Assembly (NCBI GenBank): GCA_021650915.1
Contig: CP091279.1
Location: forward strand, 3,360,001 to 3,392,000
Reading direction: 5' to 3'
Length of the DNA: 32,000 bases
Source of the DNA: Candidatus Brocadia sp.
Lineage (GTDB): Bacteria; Planctomycetota; Brocadiia; Brocadiales; Brocadiaceae
Shown here piece by piece: positions 1,768 through 32,000 of this stretch; the first letter of the stretch is position 1; each line of letters opens with the position of its first letter. Below the pieces are notes generated by a model. The model saw only the letters and a program-made list of their open reading frames with translations. It did not search any database and was not told the DNA's origin. The position numbers were made by a program, and so were the translations under genes.

Positions 1768-1812
1768 AGTGTTTTTCCCGTTATAAAAATCGCATAAACT
1801 AGAGAAAAATGT

Positions 1813-2610: not shown

Positions 2611-2730
2611 GGTTTTTTATCCTCCCTTAAAAAGTGTTGAAAATTATCCTGTTATTTCAGATTGCCGGGCATTTGATTGCCACCGGTTAAAAATGCCTTT
2701 TCCCCCTTGTAATGCTCGCCTGATCCGCGC

Positions 2731-3471
2731 CTAAATCCCGTCCCCGTCCTTATAATTTTTCATGAATATCGACATGATCTCTGATTCTGTTTCAGAAGCG
2801 GCATCATCCGCGTCGCTTGAAAGGTTTAACGTGTTTTCCAGTTTTTTTATCCGCTGTTTCAGTTTGCCATTTTCCTTTAATACCGTCATGATCGCCTCGG
2901 CAATAGGGTCGGGTAATTGCCCATGATCCAGCAAGGCTTCCTGTTCTCCCTTCTTTCGTTGTTTTATAATTCTGCCTGGCACACCGACTACCGTTGCATG
3001 AGGCGGCACGTCCTTCGTTATGACAGAACCGGATCCGATCCTCGCGCAATCGCCTATCGTTATATTCCCCAGGATGCAGGCGTTTGAACCTACAATAACC
3101 TTTTTGCCCAGGTTGGGATGTCTTTTCGTCTTTTCCGTCGTTGTGCCGCCGAGAACAACCCCTTTATAGAGGAGGCATCCATCGCCGATTACCGCGGTTT
3201 CACCAATCACCACGCCCATGCCGTGGTCAATAAATACCCCCCGTCCTATTTGCGCAGCCGGATGTATTTCAATTCCAGTCAAAAACCGGTTGATGTGTGA
3301 AATGAAACGGGATACGGTGATCCATTCTCTTCTCCACAGATAATGAGCTATCCGATGCAACCAGAGGGCGTGAATGCCCGGATAGCAGAGTAATACTTCA
3401 AATTTGCTCCGTGCTGCAGGATCATTTTGGAAAGCAACATTTATATCCTCGCGCAAACGGTCAAACATCAA
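2731..3471 (-). CDS. cysE: Serine O-acetyltransferase
   Basis: It has the N-terminal SATase helix region ('[15 protein letters not shown]...HRIAH.LW') followed by left-handed beta-helix hexapeptide repeats ('[32 protein letters not shown]'). It overlaps cysK by 4 nt. Confidence 0.9.
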
Positions 3472-4397
3472 AATTCCTTAAATAAGACCGTGGACAGATA
3501 GCGTTCGCCGGTATCGGGAAGCACAACCACAATCAGCTTTCCTTTGTTTTCAGGCCTTGCAGCCACCTGGAGTGCGGCGTGCATCGCTGCCCCGGAAGAG
3601 ATGCCGGCCAGGATCCCTTCCTGCCTGGCCAGTTGCCGGGATGCGGCAAATGCCTGTTCGTTCTTTACGGCAATGATTTCATCGATTACCTTCATATTGA
3701 GAATGTCCGGAACAAATCCCGCGCCGAGTCCCTGAATCTTATGCGGACCTGGTTTCCCGCCGGAAAGCACCGGTGAATCGGCGGGCTCCACGGCAACGAC
3801 CTTCAGCGATGGTTTCCGTTCCTTAATGACCTCGCCAACACCCGTAATCGTTCCCCCCGTGCCTACCCCTCCCACAAAGATATCGATTCTGCCATCCGTA
3901 TCATTCCATATCTCCTCGGCCGTTGTTTTGCGGTGTATCTCCGGATTTGCAAGATTTTTGAATTGCTGCGGTATAAACGAGTTCGGGGTATTCTTCTGTA
4001 GTTCTTCTGCCTTACTCACAGCGCCCTTCATTCCTTCAGCGCCGGGTGTCAGCACGATCTCTGCGCCAAATGCCTTCAGCAGGTCCCTGCGTTCTATACT
4101 CATCGTGTCCGGCATCGTTAAAATCAATTTATAGCCCCGCGCAGCAGCCACAAATGCCAGTGCAATACCCGTGTTGCCTGAAGTGGGTTCTATGATGATG
4201 GTGCTTTTACCAACCAAACCCGCCTTTTCCGCTGCTTCAATCATGGCGATCCCAATGCGGTCCTTTACGGAGCCCAAGGGATTAAATGATTCCATTTTGG
4301 CTACTACGGTAGACCCTAATCCTTTCGTAACATTATTTAATTTCACTAAGGGGGTGTCGCCAATCGTTTTCGTAATATCTTCATATATTTTTGCCAT
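3468..4397 (-). CDS. cysK: Cysteine synthase A (O-acetylserine sulfhydrylase)
   Basis: 309 aa. It carries '[10 protein letters not shown]', the PLP-lysine context '[11 protein letters not shown]', '[12 protein letters not shown]' and '[10 protein letters not shown]'. A strong RBS (AAGGAGA) lies upstream on the minus strand. Confidence 0.92.
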
Positions 4398-4517
4398 GCG
4401 GTCTCCTTAATCAGATTCTGACAAAAAGCAAGTCTTCTTTATCAAGCCATTTGAAACAGATATACTATCATAGGAAGAAGTTATTTCACAAGAAATTTTT
4501 ACAGGTTTCAATTTCCC

Positions 4518-4545
4518 TTGACAAAAGTGAATTTATCTATAGTAT
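4518..4545 (+). promoter_or_regulatory. Possible sigma70-type promoter facing the rpoZ-like ORF
   Basis: TTGACA sits at 4518-4523, followed by a 16-nt spacer and TAGTAT at 4540-4545, in the 300-nt divergent cysK/rpoZ intergenic region. Confidence 0.3.
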
Positions 4546-4695
4546 ATGAAGTTTCATTTATCGTGTTTCCCGTTTTTTCATGAACGAATTGTCTGAATCG
4601 TTCGATCACTTCGTAATGGGGAAATACGATAAAAATGCGGGTTTTTTTAGGCATTTCTATTTTTTGGGAACATAATTCTTTTTACAGGTGTTACC

Positions 4696-4935
4696 GTGAT
4701 CTATAAAAATATCGATGAACTTGCAAAACAGGTTGGTGGGTCGTTGCGGCTTACGACGCTGATTATCAGCAGGGCGAGGCAAATTATAAAAAAGTCGGCT
4801 GTTCTTGTTGCCGTTGATACCGATGACCCGGTAAGAATAGCGTTTTTGGAGTTAATGCAATCGAAGATTAAATTGAGAGAGAGCGGAGAACAGGAAAAGA
4901 AAGTTTTAGAATCGAAAAAGACGGAGGGCTCATAG
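4696..4935 (+). CDS. rpoZ: RNA polymerase omega subunit-like protein
   Basis: 79 aa with a GTG start. 'VGGSLRLTTLIISRARQI' and 'DDPVRIAFLELMQSKIKL' resemble the two conserved omega helices (..R..L..L...RA.QL / ..p..iAL.Ei..gki). Confidence 0.55.
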   Translation: MIYKNIDELAKQVGGSLRLTTLIISRARQIIKKSAVLVAVDTDDPVRIAFLELMQSKIKLRESGEQEKKVLESKKTEGS

Positions 4936-5327
4936 GACTCTGCTGAAAAAGCAGAGGACATCCGGATTTTCAAAGTGTCTATGCTTTGTCTTGTTTATGG
5001 TGAGAGAGGGGATGTATTTCATCGAATCCGCGTATCATCATGAGCTGGAATTGTTATTTGCTAGCCTACATTCTAAACTGCCTGCCAATGAATATCGCAT
5101 CAAATCGCAAGCCTTAATTCCTTGTTTCATAAATTCCGGACGATCAAATGGGTGTGTGATGGTAAGGAGCGTGCGTGTGGAAGCGCGTGAAGCGGAATTG
5201 CAATCCGTTCCCGTGCGGGTGTTCCGAAGAGAGCGTTTTATATTATGTCTATGTTAAGGATGGATAAAAACCGGCTCCAGTGAAAAAAGATAAAAAGGGG
5301 TTATTCTAAAGGGGGAGTTTTGTATAT

Positions 5328-6281
5328 ATGATTAAAGTCGACCATTTGGCAAAACGTTATGCGGACGTATACGCAGTAGATCACATTTCATTTGAAGTGG
5401 AACAGGGGGAGATTTTAGGGCTTCTGGGACCAAATGGCGCCGGGAAGACGACAACGATGCGCATCCTGACCTGTTACATGCCGGCAACTTCCGGGACTGC
5501 CACGGTGTCCGGTTATGATGTCTTTCGTGATTCAATTAACGTGAGAAAGAATATCGGATATTTGCCCGAAAACGTACCTTTGTACCCTGAAATGCGGGTA
5601 AGGGAGTATCTTTCGTTCCGCGCAAAACTGAAGAAATTGCCGTACCGTGAGCGCAAGGCAAAGATTGGAGAATGTATTGAAAAATGCAGGATTGCGGATG
5701 TCCAGAATCAAATTATTGGCACTTTGTCCAAGGGTTACCGCCAAAGGGTAGGGTTGGCAGACACCCTTGTCCATGACCCGAAAATTCTCATCCTCGATGA
5801 GCCAACGATCGGACTCGACCCCAATCAGATCCGGCAGGTAAGGCAGTTGATAAAAGAATTAGGTGAAAGGCACACCATCTTGCTGTCGACTCATATCCTC
5901 CCTGAAGTTGAAATGCTCTGTGGCCGTGTCATTATTATCAACAAAGGCAAAATCGTCGCTATGGATACGCCGTCCAATCTGGCCGTTCAGCTAAGAAGCG
6001 GAAACAACATTTCCCTGGAAGTTCGCGGCAGTGGCGAAAAGATCAGAAATGCCCTGTCCGGTATCAGGGGCGTGAAAAAGGTCGTATGGCAGGAGAAGGG
6101 CGAACTGAGTAATTTTAATGTAGAGGCGGAAAGAGGTATGGACATTCGTGAAGACGTCTTTATGAGTATTGTAAAAAATAATGGCGTTATCCGGGAGATG
6201 AAACAGGCGTCTATTACCTTAGAAGAGATATTCCATCAGATCACTACGCAGGAACACCATGAACAGGAGGTAATGGCATAA
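5328..6281 (+). CDS. ABC-2 type transporter ATP-binding protein (GldA-like)
   Basis: It has Walker A 'GPNGAGKTT', the signature 'LSKGYRQRV' and Walker B 'ILILDEPT', plus an RBS (GGGGGAG) upstream. Confidence 0.9.
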   Translation: MIKVDHLAKRYADVYAVDHISFEVEQGEILGLLGPNGAGKTTTMRILTCYMPATSGTATVSGYDVFRDSINVRKNIGYLPENVPLYPEMRVREYLSFRAKLKKLPYRERKAKIGECIEKCRIADVQNQIIGTLSKGYRQRVGLADTLVHDPKILILDEPTIGLDPNQIRQVRQLIKELGERHTILLSTHILPEVEMLCGRVIIINKGKIVAMDTPSNLAVQLRSGNNISLEVRGSGEKIRNALSGIRGVKKVVWQEKGELSNFNVEAERGMDIREDVFMSIVKNNGVIREMKQASITLEEIFHQITTQEHHEQEVMA

Positions 6282-6992
6282 ATGACGAGTGTGGGTACGA
6301 TATTTCAGAGAGAAGTTAACGCATATTTCCTATCACCGATTGCATACGTTGTTATCGCAGTCTTTACGGTTTTCTCCGGTTATTTCTTTTCGATCATGCT
6401 GGGGATAACCCAGGAATCTACGCTGCGGTATAGTCTTGCCTATACGCAGTTTATTTTATCCATCCTGGCCCCCGTTATTACCATGCGGTTAATGGCGGAA
6501 GAAAACAAAACGGGTACGATTGAGCCTCTCATGACGGCGCCGGTTACCGATTTTGAGGTGGTGTTTGGGAAATTTTTAGCAGCCTGGGCGCTCTATAACG
6601 TGATGATTGCGCCAACCGCTTTTTATATCATCTTTCTGGCATGGGTTGGAAGTCCTGATTATGGCGCAATTATCGCCAGTTATATCGGTCTGATCCTGAT
6701 GGGGGGGCTTTTCACTTCTATCGGGCTGCTGGTGTCTGCTGTCACAAAAAATCAAATTGTTGCGGCTGTTATCGGCATTGTTGCCCTGCTTATCCTGCTG
6801 GTGATCGGTTTGGCGAGCACTGAACATGAAGGATGGTTTTACAACGCACTCAAATATATTGGTACCTATGATCATTGGGACACCTTTACCAAAGGGATTA
6901 TTGATACGAGGGATGTGATTTATTACGTCAGCTTTACTGCATTACTCATATTTATTGTTGTACGCATTGTCGAGAGCAGGAGATGGAGATGA
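6282..6992 (+). CDS. ABC-2 family permease (GldF-like)
   Basis: 236 aa and strongly hydrophobic, with about 6 predicted TM segments. Its start abuts the ATPase stop. Confidence 0.8.
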   Translation: MTSVGTIFQREVNAYFLSPIAYVVIAVFTVFSGYFFSIMLGITQESTLRYSLAYTQFILSILAPVITMRLMAEENKTGTIEPLMTAPVTDFEVVFGKFLAAWALYNVMIAPTAFYIIFLAWVGSPDYGAIIASYIGLILMGGLFTSIGLLVSAVTKNQIVAAVIGIVALLILLVIGLASTEHEGWFYNALKYIGTYDHWDTFTKGIIDTRDVIYYVSFTALLIFIVVRIVESRRWR

Positions 6993-8692
6993 GCACGGTG
7001 AATAAAAAAAAGAATGATTGGTTTGATCAGGCAAACGGCTATATTATCCTGGCCGGCATCATTGCGGTTGTGGCAGGCTTTGGCACATCAAGGATTTTCG
7101 ATTCTTGGGGGCTGTCGTCTCTTATTCCCATGGGTATCGGGGGGGCTGTTATTATCGGATTTAGTACGGTTGCAGCCATGAGAAGAAATTGGTTTTCAAC
7201 CGAGGCGTCCAGGAGAAAAGCGCTGGTTGGCACCAACGTTGCAATCATGTCCATCTTTGCGGCATGCATTTTTGCGATCGTTGGATTTCTCAATAACCGA
7301 CACTATGAACGCTTCGACCTTACCGTCACCGGGAAATATTCCCTTTCGTCCAAAACCAAAAATATTCTTAAAAATCTGGACAAACCCATTGTTATAACTA
7401 CCCTTTTTAATCCGGGTGAGATGTTTTATGAACAGATCTTGGATATCCTGAAAGAATACGCCTACCACACGGACAAGATTAAAGTGGAAAGTGTCGATCC
7501 GTTAAGGAATCGAACCAAGGTTGAAGAACTGGCAAAGCGTCTCAATATCAGCGATCTTCAGCTCAATACCGTTGTGTTTGAATGTGGTGAGTACAGTAAG
7601 CATGTTCAGCAAAATGAAGTGATCGAAAAACAGTATCCTTTTAAGTTTAAGGGGGAAGAGGCGTTTACTGAGGCGATTCTCAATGTTACCCAGGAGAAAC
7701 AAACGGCCATTTACTTTGTTACCGGGCATGGCGAACGGCAGTTTGAAGATTTTGACCGCGGAGGAATTTCCGGAATTGCCAACGCCCTTAAAAGGGACAA
7801 CTGTCGTGTTGCGCCCCTCGATATTCTCTCCTCGAAGAAAATTCCGGATGATTGCGAGGTGCTCGTGATTGCGGGGCCGGCGAAGGCCTATCTGACAGAA
7901 GAACTCAACATTATCCGCAGTTATCTTGAAAACCGGGGTAAGCTTTTGCTTATGCTTGAACCGGCGCTGAGCCCGAATGCACCCACGGGATTTAAGACGC
8001 TTTTGCCGGAATACGGCATTGCGGTTCGTGACGATGTCGTTGTCTACAACAAAGTCAATATGCCTCTTTTTGGCATTCAGACCGTTGCGGAAATCTATGT
8101 GGGCAAGGATGAATATGCTGAAGACCACCCGATTGTCAACGATCTGAAGACGTATAATACGATTTTCTTTGGCGCATGTCCTGTTGACGCTTCGCCTCCG
8201 AATGACCAGATGCCCTATCAGGCAACCGTGCTCATACGGGCGCCTGAAGGCTCGTGGGGGGAGATTGACGTTGCAAATTTACGGCAGAAAAAGCCGGAAT
8301 ATAACATTGACACGGATGTGCAGGGTCCAGTCTCTCTGGCGGTAGCCTCTCAGGTAAAGGAATTGCCAAAGTCGGTTACCCAGTCGCATCCTGCTATGGC
8401 GAATGACCCAACGGCGAAGCCTCAAGGCGCCCGACTGGTTGTTTTTGGAGACGTGAATTTTGCCACAAACGAATATATAGAAAATCCGGGAAATACCGAT
8501 TTATTTCGCAATTCCATTAATTGGTTAGCCAAAAAGGAAACACAGCTGGGAATTTCCGCCAAGCCGCCTGATTTCCGCAAGGCAACCATCAGCCCGATTC
8601 AGATGAAGGTGATCTTCTGGATATCAATTGCAGGCATTCCGGTGATACCCATTGTTATTGGCAGTATCGTTTGGTGGAAAAGGCGCCGCTAA
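6983..8692 (+). CDS. GldG-like ABC transporter auxiliary component
   Basis: 569 aa. N-terminal TM segments are followed by a large soluble domain ('YFVTGHGE', 'VLVIAGP', 'VVFGDVNFATN') and a C-terminal TM anchor. It overlaps the permease gene by 10 nt. The ATPase-permease-GldG order is the usual one for this family. Confidence 0.75.
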   Translation: MEMSTVNKKKNDWFDQANGYIILAGIIAVVAGFGTSRIFDSWGLSSLIPMGIGGAVIIGFSTVAAMRRNWFSTEASRRKALVGTNVAIMSIFAACIFAIVGFLNNRHYERFDLTVTGKYSLSSKTKNILKNLDKPIVITTLFNPGEMFYEQILDILKEYAYHTDKIKVESVDPLRNRTKVEELAKRLNISDLQLNTVVFECGEYSKHVQQNEVIEKQYPFKFKGEEAFTEAILNVTQEKQTAIYFVTGHGERQFEDFDRGGISGIANALKRDNCRVAPLDILSSKKIPDDCEVLVIAGPAKAYLTEELNIIRSYLENRGKLLLMLEPALSPNAPTGFKTLLPEYGIAVRDDVVVYNKVNMPLFGIQTVAEIYVGKDEYAEDHPIVNDLKTYNTIFFGACPVDASPPNDQMPYQATVLIRAPEGSWGEIDVANLRQKKPEYNIDTDVQGPVSLAVASQVKELPKSVTQSHPAMANDPTAKPQGARLVVFGDVNFATNEYIENPGNTDLFRNSINWLAKKETQLGISAKPPDFRKATISPIQMKVIFWISIAGIPVIPIVIGSIVWWKRRR

Positions 8693-8769
8693 TTCAGAAG
8701 TTTCGCGCAATACAGAGGTTCCGTCGGTCCATTTTTATGGTATTCTACGCTGGAGGAAAGAATTAAGTC

Positions 8770-11226
8770 ATGAAACTGAAAACAACCATTATCCTTTTAA
8801 TTGTTGCCGCTATCGGTATTTCGTACGTCTTCCTTTACGAAAAGAAACAACTCCCCCAGGAAGAATGGGAACGGCTGCAAAAAAAAGTGTTGCCTGACTT
8901 TAAGGCGTCAATGATCAAAAAAATTGAATTGAACAATGAGGGTGGCAAGGTTATTCTGGAAAAGACCGCGGATAATTACTGGCATATCACAGAGCCCCTC
9001 AAGCTCCGTTCAGATAATTCTGAAGTCAACAGTATCCTCTCCGAGTTTGAATTTATGAATAAGGTTGGCTCGTTCAGCCAGGAAGGGGATAAGCCGTTTG
9101 ATCTCAAAGATTATGGTCTGGATGCCCCCACGATCTCCATTACCATGTACACCGACATCCCGGCAAAGCCTGATAAGATTCAGGTAATGGGACCGAAGGA
9201 TAAATATACGGTATTTGTTGGCAAAAAGCTTGCTGCCGGCGATAATGTGTATATAAAACTCGATGCAAGCGATGAGGTTGTGGTCGTGCCGGGCACCCTT
9301 CTTGGAAAAGTTACGAAAAATGTCCTTGATTTACGCAGTAAATGGGTGTTTGCCTTTGACAAGGATGCGGTAGAAAAGATTGAGGTGAAAACGGCAGACT
9401 ATCATATCGTTTGTGACCGGAAGGGCAGTTTCTGGCGTCTCTCTGAGCCGGTGAACGATTTGGCAGATCTGGAAAAAGTCCGGGACGTCCTTGGCAAGTT
9501 AAAGAATCTGCAGATAGACCGTGCCGACTTTATTACGGAGGATTCATCGGATTTAACGAAATTTGGGCTGGATAACCCCCGCTTTACCGTTACTCTTTAT
9601 GAAAAAGGAGTTTCGCAATCTGTTCTTTTCGGGCACTCTTTGGATAATAAGGTCTATGCGAAACGCACGGATGAACCTACAGTCTTTTTTCTGAAAGATA
9701 CGATTCTTGCAGATTTGAGCAAAAGACCAAACGACCTGAGAGACAGAAAGGTTGTGCGGTTCGATTCGATAGGAACCTACGGGATAAACAAATTGGAGAT
9801 CAAGACACCAGGCGACCTCATTACTATTGAAAAGACTTTGGATCTGGACTGGAAGCTTACCAAGCCCGTTAATATTTATGCAGACCAGGACACGGTTAAG
9901 AATTTTATTGAAAAGCTGAAAACCCTTGAGATAGAAGATTTTGTTTCGGATGCGCCAGCAGATTTATCCGCGTATGGTTTAAAAAACCCCGTCTTTGAGA
10001 TATCCGTCACCAAAGAGGAAGACAAGGAATTGGCTAAATTTTACGTGGGCAATATGTTGTCTGACGGCTCCAAATGTTACGTAAAACGCGTTGGAGAGGA
10101 ACCGGTATACACCGTTCCCACAACTGAATTCTATGACAAGATTGAGAATCCGCTCCTGCGTTTCCGCGACAGGCTGGTATGTGATTTTAACAAGGATTTG
10201 GTAAAAAAACTGGTTATTGAAAAACCGGACCGCACCTTTGTCTGCGATATAACAAACAGAAGAGATGCGGAAGGTCAATTCCAGTGGGAGCTCTCAAGGC
10301 CTGTTCAAACAATTGCGGACACAAATGCGATAAACCAGATTATATGGGACATGTCTTTTTTAAAGGTGGACAGCTATATTGTCAAAGCCCCGAAAGATCT
10401 GAAACCCTTCGGTTTAAATGACCCGAGGATCAAGGTGTCGGTAACCTATGAGAAGGCGCCAGAGACACCACCGGAAGAACAGGGTCAAAACAAGAAAGAG
10501 GAAAAGGCAGAAACCGGAGAAAAAGCAAAGGAATCTCTGGAAAAAATCGTTGAAACGAGGACGTTGCTTATTGGCAAAAAGCTTAAGGATGGCGATAAGG
10601 TTAGCTCCTATGGCATGTTTGCGGACAGTGATCTGGTGTTTGAGCTTCCCTGGCCCAAGATCAATAATCTGGATGCTGAATTGGCGCCAACCAGGATACT
10701 GAATTTTGAAAGAACGGACGTAAAAGAGCTAACGTTGAACTACAACGAAAGAACCATCTCGTTAAAAAAAATAAATAATGTCTGGAAATTAAAAAATGAT
10801 GAACAGAAGGAAGTCCAGGGACGAGAAGTGGATTACTTTATTCGCTCTTTGAATGAATTAAAAGGGAATTACATCGAACAATATAAAACAACAAACCTGA
10901 CGCAATTTTCGCTGGATAAACCACAGGCAATAATCACTATCGGATTGGAAGGCGGGGATGCCGTGCTGTATGTCGGAAAGAAGAAAGACACAGACGGCTA
11001 TTACCTGAAAAACAAAGATTCTGATTATATCTATGTCGTTGGCAACGAATCGGTTGCTAATCTGATAAAAAAGGAAGAAGATTTTACCACCTTGATTCAT
11101 GAAGCGATGCCGCAAATGTCCGGCGAAGAAGCAAAGGCGACAATGGATGAAATGTCCCTGGGTACTGCTCCGCATGTCCCACACGGGAAGCCGCCCAAGA
11201 GTTCCCCGCATGGTGGATTTCACTAA
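8770..11226 (+). CDS. Large DUF4340-like repeat protein (five tandem modules), N-terminal membrane anchor, His-rich C-terminus
   Basis: 818 aa with an N-terminal TM segment ('TIILLIVAAIGISYVFL'). The motif pair 'W.L.EP....AD...V...L..L' and 'DL..(F/Y)GLD.P...(V/I)' recurs five times. It occupies the position normally taken by a DUF4340 protein after GldG. Confidence 0.75.
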   Translation: MKLKTTIILLIVAAIGISYVFLYEKKQLPQEEWERLQKKVLPDFKASMIKKIELNNEGGKVILEKTADNYWHITEPLKLRSDNSEVNSILSEFEFMNKVGSFSQEGDKPFDLKDYGLDAPTISITMYTDIPAKPDKIQVMGPKDKYTVFVGKKLAAGDNVYIKLDASDEVVVVPGTLLGKVTKNVLDLRSKWVFAFDKDAVEKIEVKTADYHIVCDRKGSFWRLSEPVNDLADLEKVRDVLGKLKNLQIDRADFITEDSSDLTKFGLDNPRFTVTLYEKGVSQSVLFGHSLDNKVYAKRTDEPTVFFLKDTILADLSKRPNDLRDRKVVRFDSIGTYGINKLEIKTPGDLITIEKTLDLDWKLTKPVNIYADQDTVKNFIEKLKTLEIEDFVSDAPADLSAYGLKNPVFEISVTKEEDKELAKFYVGNMLSDGSKCYVKRVGEEPVYTVPTTEFYDKIENPLLRFRDRLVCDFNKDLVKKLVIEKPDRTFVCDITNRRDAEGQFQWELSRPVQTIADTNAINQIIWDMSFLKVDSYIVKAPKDLKPFGLNDPRIKVSVTYEKAPETPPEEQGQNKKEEKAETGEKAKESLEKIVETRTLLIGKKLKDGDKVSSYGMFADSDLVFELPWPKINNLDAELAPTRILNFERTDVKELTLNYNERTISLKKINNVWKLKNDEQKEVQGREVDYFIRSLNELKGNYIEQYKTTNLTQFSLDKPQAIITIGLEGGDAVLYVGKKKDTDGYYLKNKDSDYIYVVGNESVANLIKKEEDFTTLIHEAMPQMSGEEAKATMDEMSLGTAPHVPHGKPPKSSPHGGFH

Positions 11227-11420
11227 AAGTGCCGTAGCGTTGCAAAGCCGCGTCTCGCTCACTCTCTCAGGAGATGCGGAGGATAAGGCAGGAGTAGAAA
11301 CTGCGGAATCCTTAACCCTAAAATACCCGTGTTCGAGGTGAGCCTGTATGAACCACAGGCTCACAAGGGGCGTAATAAAAACGGATCAGGAAGCACGATG
11401 ACATTTTCAGGTACAGTGCC

Positions 11421-12812
11421 TTGAAAAGAATACCTCTCTTTTGTTCAATCTTTTTAACGATCATTTGCCCTCCTTTTTTATTTCACGGGGTATTTGCCCG
11501 TGAAACCACCTCCAATCGCAGAACCCCCACGGTTATAGCCGTTGAAAAGGTAGGACCTGCGGTGGCCAATATCAGCACCGAGCGACTGATTACCGCACGG
11601 CACGCAGATCCGTTTTTTGGATCGAGAAGCGAGCTCTTTGACCAGTTTTTCAATGATTTTTTTGGCCAGGGTCAGAAACAGACGGTTGAAAGACCCTTGG
11701 GCTCCGGTGTCATCATCGACGAAGATGGTTACATCGTTACCAACGAACATGTGGTAAGCCGCGCATCAAAGATCAAGGTACGATTATCGGATGGCAAAGA
11801 TTTCGAGGCTTCCATGATCAGCTCTGACCCAATCAGCGATCTTGCCGTATTAAAGATAAATTCACCCACACCGCTTCCCTACGTTAAGATGGGGACATCA
11901 AAGGACCTCATGATTGGGGAATCTGTTATAGCATTAGGGAACCCCTTTGGCCTGGAAAATTCTATTACAACCGGTGTATTAAGCGCGAAAAACCGTACCC
12001 TGACATTTAACAGCGAGTACGGTGACATTAAGTACGACGGCCTTATACAAACGGACGCACTGATAAATCCGGGAAACAGCGGAGGCCCCCTCATCAATAT
12101 TGACGGAGAACTGATTGGCATTAATGCCGCCATTGTAAATCAGGCGCAAGGGATAGGGTTTGCCATCCCCGTTGACAAGGTAAGACAAACCCTCGTTAAA
12201 CTCTTCAATTTCAGAGAACTCAATAAGATTTGGTTTGGCGCACAGGTTGAGGAGCAGGATGATAGTTCGAAGGGTATTAAAGTTTCATCGATTGAGCCGG
12301 GAAGCCCGGCCGATAAGGCACGAATCAAGGTGGGGGATTATATCACAAAAATAGACTCGAAAGAGATCCTGGATATCCTTGACTTTGAAAAATACATCCT
12401 CAGGAAGAATGCCGGTGATAAGCTGTCTATTCATATTAATCGCGATGGGAGTGAGTTCAAGGTTGACGTTAAACTGGAAAAGGCGCCGCTCCCTTCCATA
12501 GAAAAACTTGCGCTGGAAAAGCTGGGTTTGTATGTGCAGGATTTGACTCCGCAACTTGCAAAACAATTAAAACTGTGGTGGCTAAAGAGCGGGGTATTAA
12601 TTTCGGGTGTGCAAAAGAACAGTCCCGCTGCCGAAGTAGGGATAAAAGAAGGCCATGTGCTCGTGTATGTTGGCCAATATCGGATTAATGACGTCGAAGA
12701 GCTCAGCGCTTTGCTAAAGATCATGCAAAAGGGTGACGTCTGGGAGGTGGGTATCGTCTGGTCTGATAAACTTGGAGAACACCAGGGCTATGCCAGGATA
12801 AAAATCCGATAA
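11421..12812 (+). CDS. htrA: HtrA/DegP-family periplasmic serine protease with two PDZ domains
   Basis: It has a signal-peptide-like N-terminus, catalytic 'TNEHV' (His) and 'GNSGGPL' (Ser), and two PDZ-like segments. The only in-frame start I can see is TTG at 11421. Confidence 0.88.
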   Translation: MKRIPLFCSIFLTIICPPFLFHGVFARETTSNRRTPTVIAVEKVGPAVANISTERLITARHADPFFGSRSELFDQFFNDFFGQGQKQTVERPLGSGVIIDEDGYIVTNEHVVSRASKIKVRLSDGKDFEASMISSDPISDLAVLKINSPTPLPYVKMGTSKDLMIGESVIALGNPFGLENSITTGVLSAKNRTLTFNSEYGDIKYDGLIQTDALINPGNSGGPLINIDGELIGINAAIVNQAQGIGFAIPVDKVRQTLVKLFNFRELNKIWFGAQVEEQDDSSKGIKVSSIEPGSPADKARIKVGDYITKIDSKEILDILDFEKYILRKNAGDKLSIHINRDGSEFKVDVKLEKAPLPSIEKLALEKLGLYVQDLTPQLAKQLKLWWLKSGVLISGVQKNSPAAEVGIKEGHVLVYVGQYRINDVEELSALLKIMQKGDVWEVGIVWSDKLGEHQGYARIKIR

Positions 12813-12869
12813 TTCATCTCAAGCCGTTGGAAAATGGTCCATCTGGCGCTTTTTTCCACCGGTTACTTG

Positions 12870-25624: not shown

Positions 25625-26041
25625 TTACTTAAGGAGCAATATGCCGCCCAGAATAAGCAACACGCCTACTGCCTTGGACAGGGTAATCTCTTCGCCCAGA
25701 AAAATCCAACCCAAAAGGAAAGAAAATACGGGATAGCAGCAGGTAACGGGGATAATCTTTGATATCTCACCTGTCTTGAGCGCCTTGTAAAATACCAGTT
25801 GTGCCACAACACCCGCCAGAATACCGGCAAGGACAAGAAAAAAAATGGCCTTGATCCCCATTTTCCCAAAAGAGGGAAACTGAGGGGTAAAAGCGATCAG
25901 AATTACGACACCCAGGAAGACGCCCGAACATCGTATCAGGTATGCGGCGGTTGGCTCAACTGATGAGAGGCCGACCTTCTCTAAAAAGGGTACAAATCCC
26001 CAGATAAAGGCCGTCAGTAAGGCAAGGAAAAACGCTTCCAT
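25625..26041 (-). CDS. Small EamA/DMT-superfamily membrane protein (single EamA domain)
   Basis: 138 aa with 4-5 hydrophobic helices and an EamA-like C-terminus 'LGEEITLSKAVGVLLILGGILLL'. It sits 8 nt upstream of the kinase gene on the same strand. Confidence 0.65.
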   Translation of the reverse strand: MEAFFLALLTAFIWGFVPFLEKVGLSSVEPTAAYLIRCSGVFLGVVILIAFTPQFPSFGKMGIKAIFFLVLAGILAGVVAQLVFYKALKTGEISKIIPVTCCYPVFSFLLGWIFLGEEITLSKAVGVLLILGGILLLK

Positions 26042-26238
26042 ACGATTGCTCCGATAAATTTTTGAGAAAATACCCTAGAGCGTTTCATTTCATAATTATA
26101 ATAAAACCGGAGAAAAAATTCTTTAACAATATTTTCATGGCCTTTGGGATGTCGTGCTGTATTGTATTCTCTATGTAGGTAACTATTCAGCGTTCTTTTG
26201 CTCACAATTACTATGAGTGAATAACATGTTGATGCTGT

Positions 26239-26397
26239 AATCCCGGAGGGATGACATGATTATAGCATATGGTCATGCAATTACGGTTAGCCTCAGAGGG
26301 GCGACATGGTATCACTCATTTCGCCATATTTCAGCCCTATGGGGTTAAATATGGCGGTGTGCCTTATCCTATAATCATGTCGTCCCTCTTCGGGATT
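26239..26397. repeat. REPIN/MITE-like composite element, copy 1 (159 bp, about 27-bp terminal inverted REPs)
   Basis: A forward REP AATCCCGGAGGGATGACATGATTATAG lies at 26239-65. A forward variant is at 26289-315, a reverse variant at 26323-46, and a reverse REP CTATAATCATGTCGTCCCTCTTCGGGATT at 26369-97. Confidence 0.8.
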
Positions 26398-26600
26398 TTT
26401 CGGTCTGTCCATTTTCCCTGTTGGCTCTTAACTATACGGAGAAGATATTCTCTGTCAATTTTTGTTGAATAGTTGCTCCTTCAGGCTTTTCAGATGCCCT
26501 GAACCGTCCTGCTCTTTCTTGATTTTACCCGTATTTTTAGGGCATTCAAGATGATTTGAGGCTTGTATGTTTTCATCAAATCTGATATGTTTTTATTACG

Positions 26601-29404
26601 ATGATTAATCAAACGCCCGAACAAATAGCGCGAGACCTTATTGACAAGCAACTCACTGCCTGCGGCTGGCTTATTCAGAAAAAGAATCAGGTTAATCTTC
26701 ACGCAGGAATTGGAGTTGCAGTTCGTGAGTATCTGACTGATGCGGGGGTAGCCGACTATGTTCTGTTTGTTGATGAGAAACCCGTTGGTGTTATTGAAGC
26801 CAAGCGTGAGGAAGAAGGACACCGCCTCACCATACATGAAATCCAATACATGAAATCCAATCCGAAGGATATGCCTCGGCAAAACTCAAATACCTGAATA
26901 ACGAAAAACTCCCCTTTGTGTATGAAAGCACAGGGGAAGTGACCCGGTTCACCGACTTCAGAGACCCCAAACCACGGTCAAGGCCGGTATTTTCCTTTCA
27001 CCGCCCGGAAACCTTTCGTGAGTGGCGGAAGAGATCAAAATCGTTCCGTGGTAGCTTGTCTGACCTACCCGCGCTGCCCGTCGAAAGACTGCGTGATTGC
27101 CAAGTTACGGCCATTAACAACCTTGAAACATCCTTCAAGGATAATCGCCCAAAGGCATTGGTTCAGATGGCAACGGGCTCCGGGAAAACCTATACCGCCA
27201 TCACGTTTATCTATCGTTTACTGAAATACACCCATGCAAAACGCATATTGTTTCTGGTTGACACCAAAAATCTGGGCGAACAGGCAGAACAGGAGTTCAT
27301 GGCGTATCAGCCAAATGATGACAACCGCAAGTTCACCGAGTTGTATGGTGTATATCGCTTGAAATCAAGCAACATTCCTACTGACAGCCAGGTTTACATC
27401 AGCACTATCCAACGTTTGTATTCCATTCTGAAAGGAACGGAACTGGAAGAAGGCGCCGAGGAAGAAAATCCGAATGAGAGAAGTTGGCAGCCGAAAGAAG
27501 TCCCGCCCGTCGAATACAATGAAAAACTGCCGGTTGAATTCTTTGATGTTGTGGTGATTGACGAATGCCACCGTAGTATTTACAACCTGTGGAAACAGGT
27601 GCTGGAATACTTTGACGTCTTCCAGGTGGGATTAACCGCAACACCTGACCAACGCACGGTGGCCTACTTTGATCAGAACCTGGTCTCGGAATATTCCCAC
27701 GAAATAGCCGTGGCCGACGGCGTGAATGTAGGTTACGATGTGTTTCTTATTGATACACGAGTCACCCAACAGGGCGCTACCTTCTGGAAAGGCGTGTATG
27801 TGGAGCACCGTGAACGATTGAACAGGAAGAAACGGCTGGAGTTGCAGGATGAGGATGAGGCATACACCGCACAGCAGTTGGACAGGGACGTGGTGAACCC
27901 GAATCAAATCCGCACGATTATTCGTACGTTCAAGGAACATTTGCCCGAAATATTTCCCGATCGCTACAATGGGGAGGGTGAATTTGAAGTGCCCAAGACA
28001 CTCATCTTTGCCAAGACCGATTCCCACGCTGACGACATCATTCAGATTGTCCGTGAGGAGTTTGCCGAAGGAAATCATTTCTGCAAAAAAGTGACTTACA
28101 AGGCAGTCGAAGACCCAAAGTCGGTGCTGGCGCAATTCCGCAACGAGTACCACCCGAGGATTGCCGTTACGGTTGACATGATTGCCACCGGCACGGATGT
28201 GAAGTCATTGGAATGTCTGCTTTTCATGCGTGACGTAAAAAGCCGGAATTATTTTGAACAGATGAAAGGCAGGGGCACACGGACCGTTCCCTTTGATGAC
28301 CTGAAAAAGGTTTCACCTTCGGCCAAATACACCAAAGACCATTTTGTGATCGTGGATGCCATCGGCGTTACCAGGAGTTTGAAAACCGACAGCCGTCCGT
28401 TGGAAAAGAAGCCCGGCGTGCCCTTAAAAGACTTGCTGGCAGCCATTGCCGTAGGCGCGCGGGAGGAAGAGTTGTTTACTTCCGTTGCCAACCGCTTGAC
28501 ACGCCTGGAAAAACAGATTACCGACAAGGAGAAAATACAATTTTCTGCAAAGGCCAACGGCAAAACCGTTACGCAGGTGGCAAAGGAATTATTGAATGCC
28601 TTCAATCCCGATACCCTGGAAGATTTACGTGCGAGGGTAGAACGCGAAAATCCCGGAGCAGCGCCCGTTGTGAAGGAAGAAAAATACAATCACCTGCAAG
28701 CTGAATTGCAGAACAACGCAGCTAAGGTATTTACCGGTGAGTTGAATGAATATATTGAAAATGTACGCAAGGCACATGAACAGAAGATTGATATGCAGAA
28801 TCCCGATACCGTAATCAATGTGGGCTGGAACAGCGACAACAAGACAAAGGCGGAAACCCTGGTGCGGGATTTTAAGGCGTGGATAGAGCAGCACAAGGAC
28901 GAAATCACTGCCTTGCAGATTTTTTATGCGCAGCCATATCGCAGGCGTGAACTCACCTACGCCATGATGAAAGAGGTGTTAGAAAGATTGAAGACTGAAA
29001 AGCCCGTCCTTGCGCCCATGCAGGTGTGGCGCGCCTATGAGCACCTGGATGCTGTAACAAGCGCAGCACGAGGCAGCCCGCGGAATGAGCTGATTGCGTT
29101 GGTCTCCCTGATCCGTAAAGTTTCAGGCGTTGACAAGACACTGACGGCTTACGACAAAACCGTGGACAAAAATTTTCAGAGCTGGGTGTTTAAGAAACAG
29201 GCAGGCGCATTGAAGTTTACGGAAGAACAGATGCAATGGTTGCGGATGATAAAAGACCACATCGCCACCAGCATCCACCTTGATGCCGACGACCTGGATT
29301 ACACACCCTTCGATGCCGCCGGTGGCAAGGGAAAGATGTATCAGCTCTTTGGCGACAGGATGAATGAGATTATTAACGAACTCAATGAGGCATTGGCGGC
29401 ATAA
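26601..29404 (+). pseudogene. hsdR: Type I restriction enzyme R subunit (EcoEI/IB-like C-terminus), frameshifted by a 14-bp tandem duplication
   Basis: The N-terminal PD-(D/E)xK nuclease ('ADYVLFVDEKPVGVIEAKRE') is in ORF 26601-26897. The helicase part ('MATGSGKTYT', 'VVIDECHRS', 'GLTATP', 'QMKGRGTR') and an EcoEI_R_C-like tail are in ORF 26918-29404. Removing one 14-bp unit joins the two frames. Confidence 0.88.
26832..26861 (+). repeat. 14-bp perfect tandem duplication (ACATGAAATCCAAT x2) causing the hsdR frameshift
   Basis: Bases 26834-26847 are identical to 26848-26861, and the identity extends 2 nt to the left. The duplication re-encodes 'IHEIQ' in the second frame. Confidence 0.95.
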
Positions 29405-29513
29405 TGATTGACAGAAATCCCGTAGCGTGATTTGGGTTTGTAACCAGCAACCAATAGTTTGTCTGCCAGCAACATCGGAAATTCAAAGTGGATAAATGTA
29501 GAGCTGGCAGTAC

Positions 29514-29760
29514 AATCCCGAAGGGATGACATGATTATAACAAGGTAAAATAAAATTGTATTTGAATCCCGGAGGGATGACACAAATCATTTCACCCCTT
29601 CGGGGTTGTGTGGTGGCGGTGGTTGGTTTTCTATAATCATTACACACCTTCGGTGTTTAATATATGCCATAAATTAAGCAGCAAAGCCCGAAGGGCTGAT
29701 ATTATTATAGGAAAACGAGAAAAAGAAAATTAATAAACCCTGAAAGGGTGATATAAATAT
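29514..29760. repeat. REP array between hsdR and hsdS: composite element copy 2 (29514-29658) plus two further REP variants
   Basis: A forward REP lies at 29514-40 and a forward variant at 29565-90. A CCCC-TTCG-GGGG hairpin is at 29595-605, and a reverse variant at 29631-58. Further forward variants are AAGCCCGAAGGGCTGATATTATTATAG at 29684-710 and AAACCCTGAAAGGGTGATATAAATAT at 29735-60. Confidence 0.8.
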
Positions 29761-31267
29761 GGTTGACAGAAAACAAATACCGCCAAGTTGGGAAGTTGTG
29801 AAACATAGTGAAATTGCAGAAATAAATCCTAAACTTCCTTTTAAAAATATTGATGACAACACCGAAGTTTCATTTCTTCCAATGAAATTAGTTGAAGAAG
29901 AAAAAAATATTTTCTATCTCACTGAATTCAGAAAATACAAGGATGTAAAAAAAGGTTTCACCCCATTTACAAATGGTGATGTGATTTTTGCAAAGATTAC
30001 GCCGTGTATGGAGAACGGAAAATGTGTCGTTCTACATGATCTTAAAAATGAAGTTGGTTTCGGTTCAACGGAGTTTCATGTTTCACGACCAAGAGAATGT
30101 GTCATCGCTAAGTACATTTTTTATTCCATTATTCAACAGCAATTCAGAAGAATTGCAGAAAGTAATATGACTGGCAGTGTAGGACAGAAAAGAGTTACAA
30201 CGCTATTTTTTTCCGAGTTTGAAATTCCTCTTCCCCCTTTCCCCGAACAACACCGCATTGTTTCCAAAATAGAAGAACTCTTCAGCGAATTAGACAAAGG
30301 CATTGAAAGTTTAAAAACCGCCCATCAGCAACTCAAAATCTACCGTCAGGCCGTGTTGAAGTGGGCTTTTGAAGGAAGGTTGACCGAGGAATGGAGAAAA
30401 GAAAACTCAATTTTAAATACAGCCTATGACTATTTAAGACAAGTATCGGAAATACGTAAGAAGAATTTTTTAGAAGCTAAGAAAAATGGTATAAAGAGGA
30501 TTGAAAAAAATTATGATTTTGAATTTAGACGAAGTGAGGAAATAAAAACTTGGGCAAATGCCACTTTGAATAAATTAATCTACATAGCGGGTAGAATAGG
30601 ATGGAGAGGTTTAACAAAAGATGAATACACAATTGAAGGCCCAATGTTTTTGAGTGTGCATTCACTTAACTATGGAAAGTATGTAGAGTTTAAAGACGCT
30701 TATCATATTTCCGAAGAAAGGTATTTAGAAAGTCCAGAGATAATGCTTAAAGAAAAAGATATATTGCTTTGTAAAGATGGTGCAGGTATTGGTAAAATTG
30801 GCATCATTAATAAACTTCCATCGGAGGCAACGGTAAATTCCTCTTTGCTTATAATAAGAGGCATGGAAATATTTATCCCGGAGTTTTTATATCATCTGCT
30901 AAGTGGACCTAAGCTACAGGGTATAGTACGAAAACGAATCACCGGAAGTGCTACTCCTCACTTATTCCAAAATGATATTAGAAAATTTGAACTTCTTATT
31001 CCTCCCCTTGAAGAACAACATCAAATTGTTTCAGAAATAGAAACCCGCCTTTCCGTATGCGATAAATTGGAAGAAACCATAACAACCGCCTTGCGGCAAG
31101 GCGATGCCCTGCGGCAGAGTATTTTAAAAAAGGCATTTGAGGGAAGGCTGGTTGAGCAAGACCCCAATGACGAACCGGCATCAAAACTCCTGGAGAGGAT
31201 AAAGGCAGACAAGGTAAAGGGTATGACAAAGGATGATACACGAAAGAAGAAAATCCCGAAGGGATGA
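29759..31267 (+). CDS. hsdS: Type I restriction-modification specificity subunit (two TRDs)
   Basis: 502 aa. The two conserved coiled-coil spacers are 'PEQHRIVSKIEELFSELDKGIESLK...LKWAFEGRL' and 'EEQHQIVSEIETRLSVCDKLEE...LKKAFEGRL'. Each follows a variable target-recognition domain. Confidence 0.9.
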   Translation: MVDRKQIPPSWEVVKHSEIAEINPKLPFKNIDDNTEVSFLPMKLVEEEKNIFYLTEFRKYKDVKKGFTPFTNGDVIFAKITPCMENGKCVVLHDLKNEVGFGSTEFHVSRPRECVIAKYIFYSIIQQQFRRIAESNMTGSVGQKRVTTLFFSEFEIPLPPFPEQHRIVSKIEELFSELDKGIESLKTAHQQLKIYRQAVLKWAFEGRLTEEWRKENSILNTAYDYLRQVSEIRKKNFLEAKKNGIKRIEKNYDFEFRRSEEIKTWANATLNKLIYIAGRIGWRGLTKDEYTIEGPMFLSVHSLNYGKYVEFKDAYHISEERYLESPEIMLKEKDILLCKDGAGIGKIGIINKLPSEATVNSSLLIIRGMEIFIPEFLYHLLSGPKLQGIVRKRITGSATPHLFQNDIRKFELLIPPLEEQHQIVSEIETRLSVCDKLEETITTALRQGDALRQSILKKAFEGRLVEQDPNDEPASKLLERIKADKVKGMTKDDTRKKKIPKG

Positions 31268-31496
31268 CATGATTATAGCATTGAAATACAAAATCAAATT
31301 TGAATCCTGAAAGGATGACATAAATAATTTCACCCCTACGGGGTTTGCGTGGTGGCGATGATTGGTTTTCTATAATAATCACACCCCTTTGGGGTTAAAA
31401 AACAATCGCGTGCCGATGTACTATGATAATGCCATCCCTTCGGGATTAAAAAACATTGGCTGAACAATAAAATCCAGAAGGGAAATATGATTATAG
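31252..31496. repeat. REP array between hsdS and the transposase gene: composite element copy 3 (31252-31396) plus two more REPs
   Basis: An exact forward REP lies at 31252-78 and contains the hsdS stop codon. A forward variant is at 31303-28 and a reverse variant at 31370-96. A reverse REP CTATGATAATGCCATCCCTTCGGGATT is at 31421-47, and a forward REP at 31471-96 runs into the transposase RBS. Confidence 0.8.
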
Positions 31497-31506
31497 GAGG
31501 AATACT

Positions 31507-31968
31507 ATGGCAGGCACATTTTCACAAGTTTACATTCAAGTTGTCTTCACGGTAAAAGGATGGGAAAATCTCATTGGTAAGGAGTGGAAAGATGAATTGC
31601 ATAGATACATTGCCGGAGTCATCAAAGGTAAAGAACAAAAGCCAATCATTGTCAACGGAATGCCTGACCATATTCATGCCTTTGTCGGGTTGCGGCCAGC
31701 TATGGCTATTTCCGATTTGGTCCGTGATATCAAAAACAATTCATCCAATTTTATCAATGAGAATAAATTAGTGAAAGGGAAATTTTCCTGGCAGGAAGGA
31801 TATGGCGTATTTTCATATTCTCATTCACACATTCAGAATGTTTACGATTACATTTTGAATCAGGAGGAACATCACCGCACGAAAACATTCAGAGAGGAAT
31901 ACATTGACTTTTTGAAGAAATTTGAAATTGAATACAATGAAAAATATTTGTTTGAGTGGATGGAGTAA
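31507..31968 (+). CDS. REP-associated tyrosine transposase (RAYT) / IS200-family Y1 HUH transposase
   Basis: 153 aa. It has the HUH motif 'PDHIHAF' and a catalytic Tyr region 'VYDYILNQEEHH', with an N-terminal 'YIQVVFTVK' strand as in IS200-like TnpA. REP hairpins flank it on both sides, and no tnpB lies between it and the window end. Confidence 0.8.
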   Translation: MAGTFSQVYIQVVFTVKGWENLIGKEWKDELHRYIAGVIKGKEQKPIIVNGMPDHIHAFVGLRPAMAISDLVRDIKNNSSNFINENKLVKGKFSWQEGYGVFSYSHSHIQNVYDYILNQEEHHRTKTFREEYIDFLKKFEIEYNEKYLFEWME

Positions 31969-31985
31969 TATTTCTCCCATGCATG

Positions 31986-32000
31986 AATCCCGAAGGGATG
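31986..32000 (+). repeat. Forward REP copy truncated by the window end
   Basis: AATCCCGAAGGGATG starts 17 nt after the transposase stop codon and is identical to the first 15 nt of the REP consensus. Confidence 0.7.

Follow-up and report, generated by a model that had tools for sequence, protein, structure and literature searches.

A Y1 enzyme of the IS200-like kind and its hairpin family in Candidatus Brocadia: a probable REPtron-like system

The window considered here is the whole 32,000-nucleotide (nt) stretch of the Candidatus Brocadia sp. genome at positions 3,360,001 to 3,392,000 of contig CP091279.1 (assembly GCA_021650915.1), which is 99.9% identical to contig LAQJ01000087 (assembly GCA_000987375.1). 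Near its right-hand end, inside a type I restriction-modification (R-M) locus, lies a gene for a 153-amino acid (aa) Y1 HUH/Tyr enzyme that is accompanied by numerous short hairpins. What is the relationship between this enzyme and the hairpins? The first-pass annotation of this DNA regarded the two as a classic case of a RAYT transposase flanked by REP (repetitive extragenic palindromic) sequences; other possible explanations are an ordinary insertion sequence (IS), an accessory of the R-M system, or hairpins that act as RNA. In the present work, we have found that the hairpins are tightly associated with the gene in a recurrent architecture, that their stems covary, and that the association is conserved across several phyla. 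These characteristics are probably best explained by a system similar to the REPtrons and TIRtrons, which is built on an IS200-like class 1, subclass 1.2 Y1 HUH enzyme and whose partner is a hairpin family of its own, rather than by a classical RAYT.

A covarying hairpin associated with the Y1 gene

The hairpin unit is 13 nt long (A-N-C-C-C GAA G-G-G-N'-T), consisting of a 5-bp stem closed by a GAA triloop, and it is followed on its 3' side by a 13-nt tail, GAnAT(G/T)ATTATAG. The 5' foot of the unit is a conserved A and no GTAG tetranucleotide is present; the TATAG of the tail, which had been likened to the GTAG of E. coli REPs, lies 3' of the hairpin, whereas the GTAG lies 5' of it. The pairing of the stem was examined in 147 units from the window and from 80 homologous genome loci, which are the best 80 (76–95% protein identity; 77 assemblies; Planctomycetota, Bacteroidota, Ignavibacteriota, Nitrospirota, and others) of the 466 loci with relatives of the gene that were obtained in a genome scan. 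These units were chosen by the tail and the GAA loop alone, and hence the stems in this set are unselected. Standard pairs are formed by 96.7% of the stem cells, vs. 81.7% in shuffled sets, and changes on both sides of a pair are seen at 5 of the 5 stem pairs. The number of such double-sided cells is 104, in comparison to 21.6 ± 4.6 in the shuffles (0 of 500 as high) and to 3–12 in slid controls, in which the partner was moved by 1–3 columns. Stem position 2 takes all four Watson-Crick pairs (UA 62, CG 43, GC 20, and AU 15), and wobble (G-U) pairs are nearly absent (4 of 735 stem cells), which is the pattern expected if a DNA hairpin, or both strands at once, were selected for, and argues against a purely RNA structure. 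The stem covariation, which the first-pass annotation had noticed as paired substitutions, is strong and highly significant, and the hairpin structure is under selection.

The arrangement of the hairpins around the Y1 gene is also highly regular. In the typical layout of these loci, an outer hairpin at about −70 (plus orientation) and an inner hairpin at about −20 (plus) precede the gene, and an inner hairpin at about +11 (minus) and an outer hairpin at about +63 (minus) follow it; this layout recurs in Bacteroidota, Ignavibacteriota, Nitrospirota, and Planctomycetota. The outer and the inner hairpins fall into two different classes, the former mostly with the stem ATCCC (variants AGCCC and AACCC) and a full tail, the latter mostly with ACCCC or ACTCC and a tail that is reduced to GAYAT. 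One hairpin of each class, about 50 nt apart, make up a module of about 75 nt, and the left end and the reverse-complemented right end have one common consensus. Because of this shared end consensus and the plus/minus layout, the gene is described here as bracketed by two-hairpin inverted repeats. The earlier statement that the gene is flanked by REPs is correct with respect to the tight linkage of hairpins and gene, but the repeated unit is the two-hairpin module, present as inverted terminal repeats, and not the single hairpin. In 77 of the 80 loci hairpins are found within 260 nt of the Y1 gene, and none is found inside it. Within 100 nt of the gene their density reaches 12.45/kb, and it declines to 5.26/kb at 100–300 nt and to 0.93/kb at 300–1000 nt; at distances of more than 1 kb it is 0.02–0.06/kb, about the chance level (0.02/kb), and real copies at such distances are present in only 4 loci.

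A hairpin-anchored scan of metagenomes yielded 157 matches in 119 loci, and only 33 of these matches are in loci with a Y1 gene. The scan revealed 105 isolated two-hairpin doublets with sharp boundaries (48–52 nt spacing; conserved from 1–2 nt 5' of the outer stem to about 9 nt 3' of the inner stem), 13 composites of the orientation + + − −, and arrays of up to 11 units. These doublets, composites, and arrays indicate that the module is a dispersed repeat family besides being a gene-flanking structure. Head-to-tail arrays, with up to 11 units and a period of 49–57 nt, are present in L097, L135, L138, L045, and L030; some of the array spacers are identical, which points to tandem duplication of single units.

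Within the window, a covariance model built on the 147 units and applied without filters identified 14 hairpin-plus-tail units (E < 0.3), all within 26237–32000, and no comparable unit was detected in the first 26 kb (1–26000). With a tail-less hairpin at 29566 and two degenerate copies near 26290 (+) and 26335 (−), the total is about 17, in good accord with the initial count of about 15. The tail pattern has 11 matches in the window vs. 2.2 expected by chance, and 0 of 100 shuffles reached 11. The stems present are ATCCC/GGGAT, AGCCC/GGGCT, ACCCT/AGGGT, ATCCT/AGGAT, ACACC/GGTGT, and ACCCC/GGGGT, which include every type listed in the first-pass annotation (its CCCC/GGGG being the last of these), and the loops are mostly GAA, with the variants GGA, AAA, and GTA. 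The copies are grouped rather than single, in four-hairpin composites of about 150 nt and orientation + + − −. These composites are the same two modules without the gene, and the spacer between the inner hairpins in such gene-less composites varies from 15 to >130 nt. The gene and the hairpin copies are located as follows:

26237–26399, no strand assigned: four-hairpin composite upstream of hsdR, with intact outer units at 26237 (+) and 26369 (−) and a degenerate inner pair
29512–29659, no strand assigned: four-hairpin composite between hsdR and hsdS, with units at 29512 (+), 29566 (+), 29585 (−), and 29631 (−)
29682–29762, plus strand: two-hairpin module, an outer AGCCC unit with full tail and then an inner ACCCT unit
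31250–31398, no strand assigned: gene-less four-hairpin composite, with units at 31250–31278 (+), 31301–31327 (+), 31323–31344 (−), and 31370–31398 (−)
31421–31449, minus strand: complete hairpin-plus-tail unit (AATCCCGAAGGGATGGCATTATCATAG on the minus strand), 40.1 bits
31469–31496, plus strand: decayed outer-type unit, 20.1 bits, with the stem down to 3 bp (z = 0) and the tail intact
31507–31968, plus strand: Y1 HUH/Tyr enzyme gene, an intact open reading frame (ORF) of 153 aa, IS200-like subclass 1.2 by motif
31984–32000, plus strand: unit opening the next four-hairpin composite 3' of the Y1 gene, cut by the window end

All of the window copies fall inside the one type I R-M locus. The three REP copies that had been named at the outset are those at 31421–31449, at 31469–31496 (degenerate), and at 31984–32000 (truncated by the window end; 31987–32000 as placed by the covariance model). 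The tail of the decayed unit at 31469–31496 leads directly into the Shine-Dalgarno sequence (AGGAGG) and start codon (ATG) of the Y1 gene, and the orthologue of this unit in B. sapporoensis (L007) is an intact hairpin. The unit at the window end continues as GACATGATTATAG in locus L001, where two further composites are found after the Y1 gene, just past the window end. The composites at 29512–29659 and 31250–31398 have a mutual identity of 83–84%, and the region 29510–29665 folds as single-stranded DNA (ssDNA) into a long hairpin (z = −3.45). In the B. sapporoensis spacer that is orthologous to 29512–29659 (L007 7840–8000), 3 of the 4 hairpins share the stem GCTCC/GGAGC and carry GTTA, ATA, and TAT loops; judging from the sequences, this shared stem looks like a concerted replacement and not like independent drift. 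In alignments of orthologous intergenic regions from Brocadia species, the divergence was too high for indel boundaries to be read. A search of Rfam (E-value mode, 25800–32000) returned only chance miRNA-precursor-like matches to long palindromes, and a literature search with the hairpin and tail strings returned only unrelated primer sequences and no description of the hairpin. The earlier view that this REP family is not among the described types is in agreement with these searches.

The regular placement of the hairpins could also be explained if they act at the RNA level, as terminators, mRNA stabilizers, or translational regulators, and adjoin the Y1 gene as part of its transcript rather than as DNA targets of its enzyme. 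They lie at constant distances from the start (−20) and stop (+11) codons, terminator-like scores are obtained for some units, hsdS in the window and hsdM in L028 and L042 have units immediately upstream, and the loop of the opposite strand reads C(UUCG)G, which is a very stable RNA tetraloop. However, we consider this explanation very improbable in view of the near absence of G-U pairs, the symmetrical use of both orientations in modules that form an inverted repeat, the lack of a U-tract, and the gene-less composites and long arrays located away from any ORF end. There is also no enrichment of the modules just upstream of other genes, as 23 of 271 terminal modules are followed by a non-Y1 ORF at a distance of up to 70 nt, vs. 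28% of random positions. A more general role of the two-hairpin module as a 5' leader or promoter was rejected on the same count, and a promoter scan gave results below the shuffle expectation.

Class, copy number, and age of the Y1 enzyme gene

The identification of the 153-aa protein as an HUH/Tyr transposase is borne out by its match to the Pfam family Y1_Tnp (PF01797; 83.7 bits, E 1.5e-23). Its HUH motif is D54-H55-I56-H57, in which H55 and H57 align to ISDra2 TnpA, and the same comparison places the catalytic Tyr at Y115. The protein passes the NCBIfam model transpos_IS200 (NF033573; 62.2 bits vs. a cutoff of 55) and fails REP_Tyr_transpos (NF047646; 26.4 bits vs. a cutoff of 80), and its Tyr motif, YILNQEEHH, has the form Y-x3-Q-x2-HH, in contrast to the Y-x3-NP of the class 2 RAYTs. 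Sequence matches in the PDB are to IS200/IS605 TnpAs only (viz. ISDra2, IS608, and Sulfolobus and Deinococcus proteins), the best being ISDra2 (E 4e-4), and the sequence of E. coli TnpA_REP (4ER8) gave no match even at E ≤ 10. In a Foldseek search with an AlphaFold model, which is poor (pLDDT 62.5) and served for coarse ranking only, ranks 1–29 were occupied by IS200/IS605 TnpAs and 4ER8 was rank 30. The motifs PDHIH, SWQ, and Y115-x3-Q-x2-HH are invariant across 39 homologues, the invariant residues being D54, H55, H57, W95, Q96, Y115, Q119, H122, and H123 and, within a conserved 30-aa C-terminal tail, F128, E131, Y132, L148, F149, and W151. By these motifs, and not by subclass hidden Markov models, the protein matches TnpA_Y1 subclass 1.2 (DHIH, WQ, and Y-x3-Q-x2-HH; Table 1, PMC6006769).

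The description of the locus as a classic RAYT arrangement is not supported, in view of the REP_Tyr_transpos score, the Tyr motif, the absence of a match to 4ER8, and the absence of the GTAG. The first-pass annotation had also singled out three findings that would bear on its reading, viz. a tnpB gene and IS200/IS605 ends immediately downstream, many identical transposase copies, and a lack of support for covariation. No tnpB is found downstream of the Y1 gene, where an FRG-domain gene and then hsdM follow; no identical copies of the Y1 gene were found; and the covariation is strong (0 of 500 shuffles). All three results favour a RAYT-like system, yet the Tyr motif and the GTAG fail, and the locus is best regarded as a system of the REP/RAYT kind and not as a classic example.

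The description of the transposase as single also has to be modified. The complete Brocadiaceae genome GCA_046350575.1 contains two paralogs on the same 3.49-Mb contig. Of these, P0025 occupies the orthologous R-M locus, and P0020 is located at a distance of about 0.75 Mb from it; they differ from each other and are 93% and 95% identical to the window protein. Nearby duplicated Y1 copies are also present in L005 (a tandem pair) and L041, with 85% and 78% nucleotide identity. Relatives of the gene were found on 2 of 72,556 plasmids, both of them Bacteroidota replicons of about 600 kb, and on 0 phages. In comparisons with other phyla, the synonymous divergence (pS) is about 0.79 and saturated, and the non-synonymous divergence (pN) is about 0.11, so that the cross-phylum identity of about 80% is to be ascribed to purifying selection that has been strong over a long time; a recent horizontal transfer as its source was rejected in view of the saturated pS. 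The non-coding hairpin sequences are kept over the same cross-phylum span. The paralog P0020 is located in an island with DUF1156-methylase, DruA, and SNF2-helicase genes (L208/L209 8163–10520; GCA_046350575.1, CP054188.1), in which an IS110-family transposase gene lies between the left two-hairpin module and the P0020 gene. IS110 elements target REPs in Pseudomonas.

These results bear on the possibility that the locus contains an ordinary selfish IS of the IS200 type, i.e., a module-gene-module element of about 610 bp with derivatives by internal deletion similar to miniature inverted-repeat transposable elements, which spreads horizontally and lands in defence islands. Such an element would account for the NCBIfam assignment to the IS200/IS605 transposases and the Y-x3-Q motif, for the conserved element ends amid unrelated neighbours in most genomes, for the variable inner content of the gene-less composites, as in deletion derivatives, for the location of both paralogs of one genome in defence-type loci, and for the occurrence in at least four phyla. 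Nevertheless, we regard this explanation as unlikely. The copy number is low, the 80 best loci coming from 77 assemblies and no copies being identical, and the gene is virtually absent from plasmids and phages. The saturated pS with the low pN points to long residence under selection and not to recent spread, and the gene keeps its place within the R-M locus in different Brocadia species. Further, the end hairpins are inverted, whereas IS200/IS605 elements need left end (LE) and right end (RE) hairpins on the same strand, and the published subclass 1.2 is said to be without IS properties (PMC6006769).

The type I restriction-modification context

The genes that provide the R-M context of the window are listed below.

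26918–29404, plus strand: hsdR, type I R-M host context
29759–31267, plus strand: hsdS, type I R-M host context
11125–11856 of L001, just past the window end: FRG-domain gene, PADLOC PDC-S15 (candidate defence family), E 2.5e-79, followed by hsdM

The Y1 gene is found inside a type I R-M operon in 18–19 of the 80 loci, always on the same strand, in several phyla and in R-M operons of at least three architectures (viz. HSDR_N with T1RH-like_C, EcoEI_R_C, and a fused methylase-specificity subunit). In addition to the window, such loci are L028, L042, L047, L025, L082, L011, L046, L013, L017, L067, L061, L041, L038, and L039, and in the first three of these the end of an hsdR-like ORF and the Y1 ATG are 2–4 nt apart and there is no left module. 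One review of the R-M literature contains no mention of such co-directional embedding of Y1 genes in type I R-M operons. In L039, from an uncultured Chlorobi bacterium, an hsdR-hsdS-Y1-hsdM block (1743–12862) is held in common with Brocadia (identities of 70% for HsdR, 84% for HsdM, and 78% for Y1), which suggests that the R-M locus was transferred between phyla along with the Y1 gene.

The hairpins extend into the hsdS gene itself. Its last five codons and TGA come from a hairpin unit (31253–31267, with the hairpin at 31253–31265; AAA ATC CCG AAG GGA TGA), and its ATG (29759) lies inside the tail of the inner unit at 29737–29761, where the TATAG reads TATGG. A fragment of about 200 bp from the 3' end of hsdS (window 31074–31278) is repeated, together with a four-hairpin composite, on both sides of the Y1 gene, with copies at 10694–10896 and about 11000–11080 in L001, at 9388–9992 and 10650–10875 in L007, and at 8592, 8984, and 9376 in L205 (a period of 392 bp). 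The number of copies varies between near-identical strains, L003 having 124 nt where L001 has 514 nt, and the extra copies carry in-frame stops.

Two related explanations assign a larger role to this context. The first, which we consider improbable, is that the subclass 1.2 Y1 enzymes are domesticated, operon-embedded accessories that belong, in several phyla, to type I R-M and defence loci and that may rearrange or mobilize parts of the locus through the hairpin modules (e.g., the variable-copy hsdS 3' repeat and composite) or may act on the single-stranded DNA of invaders as a back-up nuclease similar to PrrC. The second, which appears to us quite improbable, is that the enzyme is an accessory of these loci, as a PrrC-like embedded effector or a rearranger of hsdS 3' ends, and that the hairpins are its local substrates. 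The co-oriented embedding described above, the short distance of 2–4 nt between the hsdR-like ORF and the Y1 gene in three loci, the defence-type island of the second Brocadiaceae paralog (with its DUF1156 methyltransferase), and the tandem repetition of the hsdS fragment with strain-variable copy number all support such a role. However, about 75% of the 80 loci have no R-M neighbour, and the other recurrent Pfam-annotated neighbour clusters are unrelated or housekeeping families. PADLOC gave no meaningful defence-family match for the Y1 protein. The dispersed modules of the metagenomes are likewise not linked to R-M, as type I R-M genes are present in 5 of the 119 loci and at least 3 of these 5 also have a Y1 gene. 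Defence islands commonly gather mobile elements, and the in-frame stops in the repeated hsdS fragments also speak against such a role.

Related systems, proposed mechanism, and significance

The reading that we prefer, a REPtron/TIRtron-like system with its own hairpin family, is based on comparison with several known systems. The REPtron, a combination of an E. coli-type TnpA_REP/RAYT with REPs or bacterial interspersed mosaic elements (BIMEs), where the REPIN is the repeated unit, is reportedly known from work by Nunvar in 2010, Bertels and Rainey in 2011, Ton-Hoang in 2012, and Messing in 2012. The present system resembles it in having a low-copy Y1 HUH gene between inverted copies of a short hairpin repeat, in the occurrence of this repeat elsewhere as inverted pairs able to fold into a long hairpin, in the maintenance of stem pairing through compensatory change, and in a gene that is under purifying selection and rare on plasmids. 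It differs in that the protein belongs to class 1 (Y-x3-Q-x2-HH), whereas RAYTs belong to class 2 (Y-x3-NP); in that a 13-nt 3' tail takes the place of the 5' GTAG (GT[AG]G) of the REPs; in that the unit has only a 5-bp stem with a GAA triloop; and in that what is repeated is a module of two hairpins, of which the outer differs from the inner. Moreover, REPs are defined by high-copy (>100) genome-wide dispersal, whereas the Brocadia units are known near Y1 genes, and the dispersed doublets are from metagenomes.

With the IS200/IS605 elements (viz. IS200, IS608, and ISDra2), the present system shares the catalytic core, and these provide the closest solved structures and sequence models for an enzyme that recognizes small hairpins on ssDNA. 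Their ends, however, have LE and RE hairpins on the same strand with cleavage sites outside the hairpins, whereas here the upstream hairpins are on the plus and the downstream hairpins on the minus strand, and they have many near-identical genomic copies, often a tnpB gene, and frequent plasmid copies, none of which applies here. Hairpin binding, with cleavage and rejoining, is established for the TnpA of IS608 and ISDra2 and for E. coli TnpA_REP. By analogy with these enzymes, each monomer in a dimer of the Y1 enzyme would bind one hairpin while the DNA is transiently single-stranded, and Tyr115 would cleave and rejoin the DNA near the conserved tail. The two hairpin-binding sites of such a dimer would be well served by an outer/inner pair whose members lie on the same strand at a distance of about 50 nt. 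Cleavage and rejoining may then copy or rearrange modules, and the gene would stay low-copy under strong purifying selection. The C-GAA-G core of the unit matches the very stable d(GCGAAGC) mini-hairpin, which fits with an ssDNA substrate.

Several points weigh against this interpretation. The binding, the cleavage site, the active strand, and the mobility of the Y1/hairpin system are put forward by analogy, and movement and cleavage by the Y1 enzyme are thus a proposal. The metagenome scan cannot tell whether a Y1 gene is present in the genomes from which the dispersed copies come, and because about 85 kb of Brocadia sequence more than about 6 kb from any Y1 gene contained no unit, high-copy dispersal in the source genome is unproven. 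A search for filled and empty sites, in which the flanks of every hairpin cluster were compared among the loci, revealed no clean insertion boundary; it yielded only tandem copy-number differences, which could be produced by recombination or slippage, an N-gap in L206, and a 23-nt microdeletion in L207. In the window itself, the flanks of the Y1 gene are rearranged, with the left inner hairpin missing and the left outer hairpin decayed, although they are still unit-dense. Lastly, the structural ranking of the protein is weak, in consequence of the poor AlphaFold model.

In published classifications, subclass 1.2 appears as an IS200-like group of low copy number that lacks IS properties, with the entry "REP: no" (Quentin et al., 2018; PMC6006769). 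The window protein and its relatives agree with this subclass in their DH[IV]H, WQ, and YIKNQKEHH-like motifs, in a length of about 148–150 aa with a conserved C-terminal 30 aa, and in their low copy number and lack of IS behaviour. They depart from it in that hairpin modules flank 77 of the 80 loci of a group that was published as REP-less, and in their distribution, which was given as Cyanobacteria and Bacteroidetes and here comprises Planctomycetota, with relatives in Ignavibacteriota and Nitrospirota. Bertels et al. (2017; PMC5581495) have described an IS200 Group 3 that may possibly be the same clade, judging by the description alone; its members are neither duplicated nor found on plasmids, have abundant 16-mers in their flanks, and were suspected to be RAYT-like. 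In the TIRtrons (Di Nocera et al., 2013; PMC3733652), too, a Y1 gene lies between terminal inverted repeats, some of which are double palindromes and some members of dispersed repeat families, but the TIRYT proteins are longer class 2.1 proteins with helix-turn-helix tails and their repeats have the motif GGGGWSAS, and neither feature is present here.

The novelty of the present system is a cognate hairpin family for a Y1 clade, subclass 1.2, to which the most detailed classification in the literature assigns no REPs, and the sequence of this family is conserved across at least four phyla despite the saturated synonymous sites in the gene. Since the clade lies between the IS200 transposases and the RAYTs, it is relevant to the question of a single vs. 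a repeated domestication of Y1 transposases, which was left open by Bertels et al. (2017; PMC5581495). The small and regular hairpin, with its one freely covarying pair, is an easy in vitro substrate for reading how Y1 enzymes use hairpin and guide sequences, and the fact that type I R-M operons repeatedly contain the gene in the same direction may be a sign of a host function.

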